Assembly (NCBI GenBank): GCA_031263015.1
Contig: JAISGN010000007.1
Span: forward strand, 313 to 64,312
Direction of reading: 5' to 3'
DNA length: 64,000 nt
Source of the DNA: Bacteroidales bacterium
GTDB taxonomy: Bacteria; Bacteroidota; Bacteroidia; Bacteroidales; P3
This document shows positions 1 to 2,455 of the stretch, piece after piece; position 1 is the stretch's first letter, and each line of letters opens with the position of its first letter. A program made the translations under genes and the position numbers. The notes under the pieces were generated by a model. The model did not search any database. It saw only the letters and a program-made list of their open reading frames with translations, and was not told the DNA's origin.

Positions 1-803
1 GGTTTGCCGGTTTTCCCCTCCAGTTCAAGACGGGCATTGCGGGCAATCGTGCCGCCCTGAGCAGCTACATTGGCGTGTTCGCTGAAAGTTTCTGGGTTTT
101 GTGTTTCGGAAATCTGTTTAGTTGAAAGCTCGGCGAGCATATTAAGGACGAGTTCCGTATTGGTCATGTTGTCTCGCAAGTTTTCTTTTTTTAACCCTTT
201 GAATTGTTTATATTGCTTGGTGGTTTTGTCGCTCCAAGTTTTTGTGATAATATCCGTCAGCGTGGCAAATTGCTGACCTTCCTGCACTCCACGCCGTTTC
301 CATTCATCTGTTAAGTCTTTGCGAATCTCAATGCTTTTCAGGCGTTGATTAATCCAATTGTCCGAATAGCCGAGCCGTTTGTAATCCATCATTGCCTGCT
401 CTATGGAGAGTTCGGGGTCTTGCAGTTGGTCGAGCCGCTCGTTGGCAATCGCAGCCATCCATTGCTTAAACGGTTCGGCTTTTGGTGAAGGTATAGATTG
501 TATCAGGCGGAAAAGTTGCTCTGCCGTAGCAACATCGGTAAAACGCATTTTGCCGTCGGCAGCAAGCATTTTCAAACGGTTACAATTTGTAACCGTTTCG
601 TTCCCTTCCGTTTTTAAACGGTGTTTGAGAACTTTCCAATAGTTTCTTGCATTCTCGTGCGTGGGCTGGTCGGTTAATACTTTTACTACATCTACAATTG
701 CAAAGTACCATTCTTCACGTTCTTTATCCCACACAGTGCGGACTTTCTTCTCTTCAAAAAGTTTGATTTCGGATTTAGTACCTTTTACATTGATTTTTGC
801 CAT
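1..803 (-). CDS. Bro-N / DinD-like (DNA-damage-inducible protein D family) protein; 3' end cut by the window edge
   Basis: The minus-strand frame is open from ATG at 803 to position 1. It is missing from the ORF track because no stop lies in the window. The N-terminus MAKINVKGTKSEIKLFEEKKVRTVWDKEREEWYFAIVDVVKVL is Bro-N-like. The later segment LRDNMTNTELVLNMLAELST...GGTIARNARLELEGKTGK fits the DinD/Bro family pattern. Confidence 0.7.
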   Translation of the reverse strand, partial: MAKINVKGTKSEIKLFEEKKVRTVWDKEREEWYFAIVDVVKVLTDQPTHENARNYWKVLKHRLKTEGNETVTNCNRLKMLAADGKMRFTDVATAEQLFRLIQSIPSPKAEPFKQWMAAIANERLDQLQDPELSIEQAMMDYKRLGYSDNWINQRLKSIEIRKDLTDEWKRRGVQEGQQFATLTDIITKTWSDKTTKQYKQFKGLKKENLRDNMTNTELVLNMLAELSTKQISETQNPETFSEHANVAAQGGTIARNARLELEGKTGK

Positions 804-834: not shown

Positions 835-1010
835 TTATTTATTTTATAACCCGAAGATAGTGATTTGTTGAAAAACAGCTGAATGTTTGGTTAAACATGG
901 TGGCGGCTTCACGCAGTATCGTTTTTGTGAGTGACAAAACTTGCAAGTTCGCAGTACCTTTCAGGCTGGCTATACCGCCACTTTTGGGTAGCTGCTGTTG
1001 GCAGTAGTTC

Positions 1011-1397
1011 TTATTTCTCTTCGTCTTTCTTTGGTGGTTCGTAGTTCCAAAAGTCTTCTCTATTTAATGCTCCTAATAGTTTTCCAAGTTTTCCAATTCC
1101 CAATTTTTCCAACGGTTCATTTCCTTCAAATCCACTAGCTTCAGGTCGGGCAATTAAGAAAAAACCACCATCTTTTAGAATGGCTGGTTTGTTTTGTAAT
1201 GATGCAGAAGCAAAATAATAGTCGTCACTCAGAACAACTATAACTTCGGACATTCCTCTCTTTCTATAAACTTTATAAATATAATACTCTTCATTGTCAA
1301 TTAGCTCGAACCAACCAACAGCAAAATGGTTCATTAAAGCTCTTTCAATAAAGGGTATGATAGAATAGTGTAAGTTTTTACCCATTTTTACTTTCAA
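1011..1397 (-). CDS. hypothetical 128-aa protein, partner of the membrane nucleotidyltransferase
   Basis: This is a complete ORF whose start overlaps the upstream gene's stop by 20 nt, which looks like an operon. No family was recognised. The sequence looks mixed alpha/beta with a charged tail (PPKKDEEK). Confidence 0.5.
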   Translation of the reverse strand: MKVKMGKNLHYSIIPFIERALMNHFAVGWFELIDNEEYYIYKVYRKRGMSEVIVVLSDDYYFASASLQNKPAILKDGGFFLIARPEASGFEGNEPLEKLGIGKLGKLLGALNREDFWNYEPPKKDEEK

Positions 1398-2346
1398 ATT
1401 TTAGTTGGTTAAAATCAACAAATTCTGAAAAGGCAGATTTGTTAGTTTCTTCAAATAATGTAGTATGAAGTGGTTGACGGAATTTAACTTTAAAGTCAAA
1501 CTTAATATTTTCAATTTTTTTGTTTGTCTCGTATAGGTCTGCTGCCTTGTCTAGTAAAATTGCAATGTCAAAATCGCTCGCTTTTTTAGGTGTCAAAATT
1601 GCTGAACCAAATGCAATCCAATGGGGTAAGTTCAAAGGTTTTAAATTATTTGAAAGCCATTTAAGTTTCCGTTTTAGTAACTTATCGTTCTTTGCCCTTT
1701 CAAAACAATGTGTCAAAATTATATCTGGAAATGTTTTAGGAAATTGAAATTCGGAGTAATCAAAATTCGGATTTTCAATGTGTTTTTGAAACGTATCAAT
1801 ATGTAAAACCATTCTTTTAAAATCGTTTTCATACTTTGATGGAATTATCGCATTATTATCTTTAATAAGGTTTTTAATAGCTTCATTATTTGGCTTTATA
1901 ACTTCTTTTTTTAACTCTTCCCACATTGTTAAGTCCGTTCTTAACTTTCCTGTATTATCACGCCCAGAATTAGGTCCTGTCATTTTGAATATGTATTCGT
2001 TGTCTTTTAAGATTGGTAGTATTTCTTGGCAAAGTTCTCCAAAGTCAGAAAATGATTTGTATTCAGCATGATTAAATGCTGGTTCGTTTGGCTTTTCATA
2101 TTTTAAATCCAAATATTTATGAATAGTGTTGTAGGTCAAGGCAAACAGAATAACAGTCAAGCCAATAGCCCAATCATATTCCCCAATTAATGAAAACTGA
2201 AATTTACTAAAAGCAATATTGAGAATGTCAACCCAAATGGGTTTAGAAAGCAGAGTCAGTCCGCCAAGTACAAGTATTCTTGTCAGAATGTTGTAGTATT
2301 TGGGTCTTAATAGTTTAAATATTTCTGCTAATGATTTGATGTTCAC
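1378..2346 (-). CDS. 2-TM membrane protein with a C-terminal minimal nucleotidyltransferase (Pol-beta fold, MNT-like) motif
   Basis: This is a 322-aa ORF. It has two N-terminal hydrophobic helices (ILTRILVLGGLTLLSKPIWVDIL and WAIGLTVILFALTY). The C-terminal WIAFGSAILTPKKASDFDIAILLD fits the hG[GS]x9-13Dh[DE]h signature. The middle ~130 aa are unassigned. Confidence 0.6.
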   Translation of the reverse strand: MNIKSLAEIFKLLRPKYYNILTRILVLGGLTLLSKPIWVDILNIAFSKFQFSLIGEYDWAIGLTVILFALTYNTIHKYLDLKYEKPNEPAFNHAEYKSFSDFGELCQEILPILKDNEYIFKMTGPNSGRDNTGKLRTDLTMWEELKKEVIKPNNEAIKNLIKDNNAIIPSKYENDFKRMVLHIDTFQKHIENPNFDYSEFQFPKTFPDIILTHCFERAKNDKLLKRKLKWLSNNLKPLNLPHWIAFGSAILTPKKASDFDIAILLDKAADLYETNKKIENIKFDFKVKFRQPLHTTLFEETNKSAFSEFVDFNQLKFESKNG

Positions 2347-2455
2347 TGTCGTTTTTTAGAATTACTGCTAACTCTTAAATATGCGAAATTAAAACTATTT
2401 TTTGTCGTCGCCATATTATTAATGTTGTTGATATGATTTATGATTAAAATTCGGT

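Follow-up and report, generated by a model that had tools for sequence, protein, structure and literature searches.

We found an overlapping gene pair on the reverse strand of a 64,000-nt window of a Bacteroidales bacterium (GTDB lineage Bacteria; Bacteroidota; Bacteroidia; Bacteroidales; P3; GenBank assembly GCA_031263015.1, contig JAISGN010000007.1, positions 313 to 64,312 of the forward strand). Judging from sequence comparisons, this pair is probably a conflict system that is built on a minimal nucleotidyltransferase (MNT), swaps its effectors and includes two novel protein families. The larger product consists of an N-terminal module with two transmembrane segments (the 2TM module), a helical domain named X and a C-terminal MNT domain. 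In relatives of this protein, the position of the 2TM module is held by toxic effector domains, and the pair itself is a discrete mobile cassette; both facts had been missed in the preliminary description of this DNA. The genes and domains are as follows.

1378..2346, reverse strand: large gene, 322 aa, 2TM module, helical X domain and C-terminal MNT, GTG start
1011..1385, reverse strand: small partner gene, 124 aa from the ATG at 1385, predicted alpha/beta protein of an unnamed family
2077..2346, reverse strand: 2TM module, proposed membrane effector (residues 1-90; hydrophobic windows 20-42 and 51-71)
1702..2064, reverse strand: X domain (residues ~95-215), all-helical, absent from family libraries
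1381..1629, reverse strand: MNT domain (residues ~240-322), GS...DxD

The preliminary description had reported open reading frames (ORFs) of 322 and 128 aa that overlap by 20 nt. Both ORFs exist, the smaller one at 1011..1397 on the reverse strand from a TTG at 1397, and only the start of the latter needs revision. All homologues of the small protein begin with MGK(D/N)LH, and this places the start at the ATG at 1385, so the product is a protein of 124 aa, not 128 aa. The overlap itself therefore stands, with a length of 8 nt (ATGGGTAA) in place of 20 nt, and translational coupling of the two genes still seems plausible from their arrangement. The G+C content of the pair is ~0.31, compared with 0.35-0.47 in the flanks. 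The same-strand downstream gene (3..803) carries a Bro-N domain (Pfam, E 3e-12), as had been recognised before.

The C-terminal domain of the large protein is an MNT of the Pol-beta superfamily by its motif and predicted fold. Its signature, FGS (247-248) followed by D258-F-D260-I, fits the pattern hG[GS] and then [DE]h[DE]h after 9-13 residues. None of G247, S248, D258 and D260 varies in 25 close homologues; among 66 distant relatives, S248, D258 and D260 are conserved in 100% and G247 in 97%. An AlphaFold2 (AF2) model of the large protein, based on a 25-sequence alignment, has a mean predicted local distance difference test score (pLDDT) of 84.7. It comprises N-terminal helices at 20-33, 37-49 and 58-83 (low confidence), a helical region at 102-238 and a beta-alpha-beta core at 242-312, where strands 242-246, 259-264 and 293-298 and helix 271-289 make up the nucleotidyltransferase (NTase) core. 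For the C-terminus, Foldseek gave probabilities of 0.97-0.99 to 2rff and HI0073 (1no5) and of 0.82-0.93 to the MNT antitoxins 8xeo and 8xeh, the target-normalised TM-score to solved MNTs being ~0.5. The query was the large model in full, for which no part but the NTase end was recovered apart from spurious matches to zinc transporters. Sequence profiles give fainter matches. The Pfam Polbeta model matches the window protein with E 6.7e-4 and 20.2 bits, under the cut-off of 26.9; at E<=5, Polbeta is matched in 14 of 25 homologues and NTP_transf_2 in seven, with DUF6932 also among the homologue matches. The relative P0194 clears the NTP_transf_2 cut-off (24.7 against 21), and NCBIfam gives a weak MntA match for the large protein. 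Searching PDB sequences with a profile of the large protein returned no NTase chain at E<=10, only a spurious match to a PPR repeat. The fusion of an MNT-like module to a membrane anchor, as proposed earlier, agrees with the predicted NTase fold, the conserved catalytic residues and the hydrophobic N-terminal helices.

The two genes are conserved together. In 5.8 billion proteins, homologues of the large protein form 73 clusters and those of the partner 96, and all named sources are Bacteroidota. We identified 12 loci in 185,579 species genomes; at every one of them the large gene and the partner are adjacent and in the same order, mostly overlapping, and the pairing is also kept in L016, L017, L027 and L029 and in further metagenome loci. 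The distribution is patchy: one of 41 related genomes, the window's own, has the pair, and the other 40 lack it. No relatives were found on viral contigs.

A wider profile search of 1.84 billion representative proteins yielded 718 relatives of the large protein, which were sorted by the profile region matched; selected ones were scanned with Pfam and PADLOC. The family splits into three separable modules, namely the 2TM module, X+MNT with other N-termini, and effector-X forms, in which the protein terminates exactly after X, as many relatives do. The following N-termini were found in addition to various other transmembrane segments.

P0188: TIR domain on X+MNT (Pfam/PADLOC)
P0218: SEFIR domain on X+MNT (Pfam/PADLOC)
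P0192, P0194 and P0195: SMEK nuclease (PADLOC Argonaute-associated restriction endonuclease, E 3e-42)
P0193: HNH domain on X+MNT (weak Pfam match)
P0206: calcineurin-like phosphoesterase (Metallophos) on X+MNT (Pfam/PADLOC)
P0189: DUF676-like alpha/beta-hydrolase on X+MNT (Pfam/PADLOC)

SMEK is a nuclease domain of short-pAgo (prokaryotic Argonaute) partners (PMC10810196). The partner gene lies directly downstream in the TIR version (L018; hhalign E 1e-42), the SMEK version (L021; hhalign E 3e-40), the phosphoesterase version (L024) and the SEFIR version (L023), the four effector-domain versions that this check covered. It is likewise retained where X+MNT carries another transmembrane segment. 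A split three-gene form exists on three independent contigs, where SMEK-X (299 aa), an MNT with GS...DxD (107 aa) and the partner (127 aa) are separate genes. The G+C content of the split-form loci ranges from 0.29 to 0.63, and the family thus reaches beyond Bacteroidota. A described system combining TIR, SEFIR or SMEK with an MNT was not found in the literature covered by our search.

The small partner is the first of the two novel families. Its AF2 model (pLDDT 87.5) has the order alpha-beta-beta-beta-alpha-beta-beta-beta-alpha. The residues M1, K3, H6, H20, R41, D54, Y56, G73, P81, E82 and K99 are shared without exception by 32 of 32 sequences, a set that takes in very distant ones and partners of the TIR, SMEK, SEFIR and Metallophos versions. 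The preliminary description had found no named family for either protein of the pair, and Pfam, NCBIfam, PADLOC, PHROGs and PDB likewise give no family-level assignment; for the partner, there is no match at all in the first four, nor in PDB by sequence profile. Its homologues are annotated as 'hypothetical' in all 96 clusters, and no public source names the protein. With Foldseek, no match with E<0.1 was obtained against PDB or BFVD. Weak, non-significant matches (E 0.1-1) are to FokI, MspJI, PaqCI, a tRNA-splicing endonuclease, Rpb5 and T7 endonuclease I, most of which have the restriction-endonuclease fold. The predicted order of secondary structures is compatible with a restriction-endonuclease-like fold, which is not proof of one: the order fits the alpha-beta-beta-beta-alpha-beta core of PD-(D/E)xK enzymes, and the canonical D...(D/E)xK motif is not present. 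We rejected the partner as a HEPN protein, in line with the earlier impression, since the model is alpha/beta, a conserved Rx4-6H motif is lacking and the hhalign probability is 0.2% against 32 HepT (PF01934) sequences. An RALMNH string near the N-terminus had been pointed out as fitting Rx4H; its histidine (H20) is invariant, but R15 is variable, and the string is not a conserved motif.

The X domain is the second novel family. Its predicted helices span residues 102-123, 137-163 and 170-191, and the residues conserved in the 66 diverse relatives are N116, P125, W142, P152-N153-N154, H182, F186, H189, Y197 and F202-P203. No match to X was found in Pfam, NCBIfam, PADLOC, PHROGs or PDB, nor any Pfam match to it in 25 plus 20 proteins scanned. 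HEPN was rejected for X as well (hhalign probability 0.4% against the same HepT sequences; no Rx4-6H).

The hydrophobic segments of the 2TM module lie at ~20-42 and 51-71, with moderate Kyte-Doolittle means of 1.4-1.7. Their K/R-rich flanks suggest a hairpin with N-in/C-in topology. None of the SLATT_1-5 families is matched in the Pfam results of 25 homologues at E<=5. The module is also found on proteins with unrelated C-termini (P0291, P0304 and P0316). At locus L026 (1948-3891), it is fused to an unrelated C-terminal region of 330 aa (P0304, 422 aa), and this gene is followed by overlapping genes of 69 and 162 aa; this is possibly another system built on the same membrane module.

The pair is a discrete, horizontally mobile cassette of ~1.4 kb, bounded by covarying inverted repeats. 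Three unrelated metagenome-assembled genomes (MAGs) share it with a nucleotide identity of 87-93%, which is limited to positions 974..2372/2382 of the window; they have no flanking sequence in common. The boundaries are as follows.

2359..2372, reverse strand: 5' boundary repeat GTTAGCAGTAATTC, 12 nt upstream of the GTG start; homology to other genomes begins exactly here
997..1010, reverse strand: 3' boundary repeat GAACTACTGCCAAC, abutting the stop codon, an inverted copy of the 5' repeat
900..996, reverse strand: attC-like hairpin remnant, with its 5' half intact (identical to L002 up to GTGGCGG) and its 3' half, including the AAC|GTT box, missing

The 5' copy is written GTTRGCAGTAATTC and located 10-28 nt upstream of the start (window 2359-2372), and the 3' copy, adjoining the stop, is written GAACTACTGCYAAC (window 997-1010). 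The arms covary across lineages: L006 and L008 have A:T for G:C, and covariation is also seen in L011/L012 (in L011, GTTATGGGTAATT / AACTACCCATAAC) and in L013 (GTTGCCATTAATTT / AAACTAATGGCAAC). One A.C mismatch between the arms is conserved in all lineages compared. An imperfect palindrome of ~132 nt, CTGCYAAC...A(A/C)CG|TTRGC, starts with the 3' arm in other genomes; for it, RNAalifold predicts 25 pairs from seven copies, 15 of them with compensatory changes. The window's remnant retains only the stem 975-981 / 900-906, a strict attC-like pattern has no match in the window's genome, and neither the flanking repeats nor the downstream hairpin had a match in Rfam. The mobility of the cassette explains the patchy distribution of the pair.

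In other genomes, the cassette stands in arrays. Three consecutive units of the cassette-plus-palindrome type are found in L007, and in Tenacibaculum aestuariivivum a 662-aa ORF, the pair and GmrSD form three consecutive blocks, each closed by one and the same 130-nt repeat. They lie within 6.4 kb downstream of a 395-aa tyrosine recombinase, and a block containing a DNA methylase separates this recombinase from the pair. The strict repeat pattern occurs 23 times in the Flavobacterium MAG of L007, compared with 0 in the control, at a spacing of 570-800 nt on many short contigs, and there a cassette and repeat come directly after the homologous recombinase. Such integron-like arrays were seen in Flavobacteriia (L007 1-3084; L013 1766-9260 plus L040; L038 2300-3371; many contigs of G045). 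Their units comprise a single ORF or a few ORFs between GTT.../...AAC boxes, each unit being followed by the hairpin, and the arrays are headed by a Xer/IntI-like tyrosine recombinase of 378-396 aa without the IntI-specific insertion. The adjacent recombinase scores 192 bits against the integron integrase model TIGR02249 (cut-off 265), with the match split at model positions 180-236, where IntI has this insertion. Its best model is the Xer-type NF040815 (217.5 bits against a cut-off of 220). No TIGR02249 match over 265 bits, hence no canonical integron integrase, was found in G000 or in 11 carrier genomes. These observations suggest that some Flavobacteriia have integron-like cassette arrays served by a Xer-like recombinase. 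No cassette-array recombinase was found in the window's genome, and since the 3' half of the palindrome is missing too, the window copy is probably a stranded cassette.

This cassette resembles integron cassettes in being a compact, promoter-poor unit with GTT.../...AAC boxes and a palindrome of ~130 nt with covarying stems, and in forming arrays of units beside a tyrosine recombinase. The attC-type imperfect palindrome with AAC/GTT boxes that defines an integron cassette is present in the other genomes, whereas the window copy has lost its 3' half. The differences are the lack of a canonical IntI, boundary repeats of 14 nt instead of 7 and the host phylum, Bacteroidota. Integron cassettes are known to act as reservoirs for compact defence systems (10.1101/2024.07.02.601686; 10.1101/2024.07.02.601719), and a recent integron survey mentions Bacteroidota as a clade in which no integrons had previously been found (10.1101/2024.07.02.601686).

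We also investigated the genetic loci of the pair. The flanking genes differ between loci and none is conserved. The 2TM version neighbours ApeA in L002, a DUF4411/PIN toxin in L004, a CAP12-type TIR protein in L009, a DNA methylase and GmrSD in L013, and ParE in L027. The TIR, SMEK and SEFIR versions sit among toxin-antitoxin (TA) pairs of DUF433/DUF5615 and a ThsB-TIR gene. No conserved housekeeping operon was found around the pair; the neighbourhoods are variable and some contain defence genes, which agrees with the accessory, defence- or TA-like context that had been ascribed to it from the window. In L022 (477-2490), the SEFIR-X protein P0231 is preceded by an overlapping gene for a 340-aa ThsB-type TIR protein and by a 142-aa ORF; from this arrangement, the family may combine with Thoeris-like components. 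In Adhaeribacter swui (CP055156; L015 3878-6354), the large gene is split by an IS3-family transposase (rve), which is inserted between profile positions ~169 and 162 and accompanied by a short duplication; the partner gene remains intact. This locus is a natural knock-out of the putative effector, and it fits the large protein being the harmful component.

Other elements near the cassette were recorded. In Flavobacterium hydrocarbonoxydans, a Flavo-1 small RNA (Rfam RF01705, 73 bits; L008 5610-5685, reverse strand) is located 300 nt upstream of the cassette. In the window, a near-perfect tandem repeat of 21 bp x 4.4 (GGAAGAAAAGTTCTCGTCCGT) occupies positions 2476-2567, 130-220 nt upstream of the operon; being outside the shared cassette (boundary 2372), it is part of the host locus, not of the module. 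In the 650 nt upstream of the operon, a single TAnnTTTG box occurs, at 2768-2775, which is 429 nt from the start. Positions 2891-2976 form a perfect long hairpin of nested palindromes, a structured repeat and not a known RNA family; microRNA precursors were rejected here, since the Rfam matches on both strands (MIR851, E 3e-6) are spurious and far under the gathering score.

A fixed chassis with swappable toxic N-terminal domains is a hallmark of abortive-infection defence systems. We favour, with some reserve, the view that the pair is a self-contained conflict module of the abortive-infection or TA type. The large protein would be tethered to the inner membrane through its two-helix N-terminal module, and its remainder would be cytoplasmic. 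Because toxic domains occupy the same position in relatives with the same chassis, the 2TM module is probably itself the effector, and it would act by damaging or depolarising the membrane. X is most likely a regulatory or receiver domain, because it always stays with the effector, whereas the MNT is sometimes encoded by a gene of its own; control of the effector by the MNT and the partner would then pass through X. More speculatively, after the MntA/HepT and Hailong systems, the catalytically intact MNT might constitutively nucleotidylylate a protein or make a nucleotide product. The partner, with its invariant Y56, and X, with Y197, could be targets of the modification, these tyrosines being candidate acceptors. 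The modification or product might keep the effector silent until phage infection lifts the restraint, in the manner of a guard. The roles given here to X and the partner are guesses.

Several points weigh against this interpretation. X and the partner have no recognisable fold relative in PDB profile searches or in Foldseek searches with both models. No member of the family was found on viral contigs or in PADLOC, and the defence assignment is drawn from architecture and association. About two thirds of the neighbourhoods are housekeeping or ordinary metabolism, or unannotated. The two N-terminal helices are moderately hydrophobic and have an AF2 pLDDT of 59-80, and the 2TM segment could simply be an anchor.

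Alternatively, the pair might be a type VII-like TA system, in which the small protein is the toxin and the MNT an AMPylating antitoxin, with the membrane segment only localising the protein. MntA is known to oligo-AMPylate a tyrosine of HepT and so to silence this toxin (PMC7641770, PMC13000451). The MNT of the large protein is structurally nearest to MntA-type antitoxins and HI0073 and has the weak NCBIfam MntA match, the gene order (MNT first, small partner second, overlapping) is the same as that of mntA-hepT, and the partner offers an invariant Y56 along with invariant polar residues suggestive of an active site. The partner, however, is not HEPN, as described above, and known toxic effectors (TIR, SEFIR, SMEK, HNH and phosphoesterase) in the N-terminal slot are hard to square with a pure antitoxin. 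Moreover, with an active toxin as the partner, the Adhaeribacter locus, where an insertion sequence disrupts the large gene and the partner is intact, ought to be lethal. We regard this alternative as unlikely.

A CBASS/Pycsar-like signal synthase is an explanation to which we give the same low credence. The partner would sense infection and turn on the MNT, whose nucleotide product would be bound by X, and X would activate the fused effector. An effector plus a receiver domain, with swappable effectors, is the architecture of cyclic-nucleotide defence, and it is in keeping with a synthase that the MNT can be a gene of its own; the invariant polar residues of X (N116, N153, N154, H182, H189 and Y197) are compatible with a ligand pocket. 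These MNTs of 100 aa, on the other hand, do not have the additional helical domain found in CD-NTases, the PADLOC and Pfam models of CD-NTase or SMODS show no similarity, and fusing the synthase and receiver in cis, as in most members, loses the advantage of amplification. A housekeeping or envelope role, such as a membrane nucleotidyltransferase that modifies lipids or the cell surface with an accessory subunit and has no part in conflict, would account for the membrane tethering, the many ordinary metabolic or envelope genes in the flanks and the position of the window copy beside the dcw cluster, but it is very improbable given that the pair is in one of 41 related genomes, its neighbourhood is not conserved, it is transferred as a 1.4-kb cassette, and soluble TIR, nuclease and other domains replace the membrane part while the same partner stays.

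The conflict-module interpretation can be taken further. The family might be a broad, undescribed class of anti-phage systems in which the MNT and the 124-aa protein gate diverse effectors via X in a guard-type manner, through nucleotidylylation or an oligonucleotide product, and which is spread in Flavobacteriia on an integron-like platform of attC-like hairpins and a Xer-type recombinase. Both parts taken together, we hold this proposal tentatively, at somewhat short of even chances. If the pair is a defence system, it would be a new family built on the MNT, the most abundant prokaryotic TA enzyme, here rewired to membrane, NADase-type and nuclease effectors. It also introduces two protein families without known relatives: the X domain, and the 124-aa partner, which has MGKxLH as its invariant N-terminus as well as H, R, D, Y, E and K residues that never vary. 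Fused forms, split forms and swapped effectors make up a natural series that is a ready experimental system, where the TIR and SMEK versions offer direct enzymatic read-outs. The integron-like arrays in Flavobacteriia, if true, matter for gene flow and for defence 'biobanks' outside Proteobacteria.

We compared the pair with known systems. With CBASS, Pycsar, Thoeris and short pAgo it shares a constant chassis that carries the same set of N-terminal effectors (TIR, SEFIR, SMEK/restriction endonuclease, phosphoesterase, lipase-like and transmembrane). The chassis itself, made up of X, the MNT and the 124-aa partner, has no match among the sensor and synthase families of those systems in PADLOC, Pfam and NCBIfam; neither the large protein nor its relatives match CD-NTase, SMODS or SAVED in PADLOC or Pfam. 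In Hailong, as outlined in PMC13434031 after Tan et al. (2025), HalA is a membrane channel and HalB a nucleotidyltransferase whose product keeps the channel shut. By that outline, Hailong resembles the present system in combining a membrane effector with an NTase as a negative regulator, and it is a precedent for a membrane effector closed by a product. It differs in that a single polypeptide here holds both the NTase and the membrane segment, a third conserved component exists in the small partner, and the effector can be replaced by soluble enzymes. In a comparison that relies on PDB only, as PADLOC 2.0 may predate Hailong, no entry described as Hailong or HalB is among the top 50 Foldseek entries for the large model, which are minimal NTase/MNT-antitoxin, zinc-transporter (ZnT/YiiP/MamM) and ribosomal chains only, and the PDB profile search returned no NTase. 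The likeness to HepT/MntA and to the fused MNT-HEPN protein FhepTA (PMC7641770, PMC13000451) includes an MNT of ~100 aa with GS...DxD, a tightly coupled small operon, mobile DNA and the fusion of a helical domain with an MNT, and the MNT antitoxins are the nearest structural relatives. In contrast to these systems, no HEPN is present here, X and the partner both having hhalign probabilities below 1% against HepT and no Rx4-6H, and the domain order is reversed, with the MNT at the C-terminus. The present system is further set apart from HepT/MntA by its additional conserved alpha/beta partner and by its swappable N-terminal effectors, including the 2TM module.

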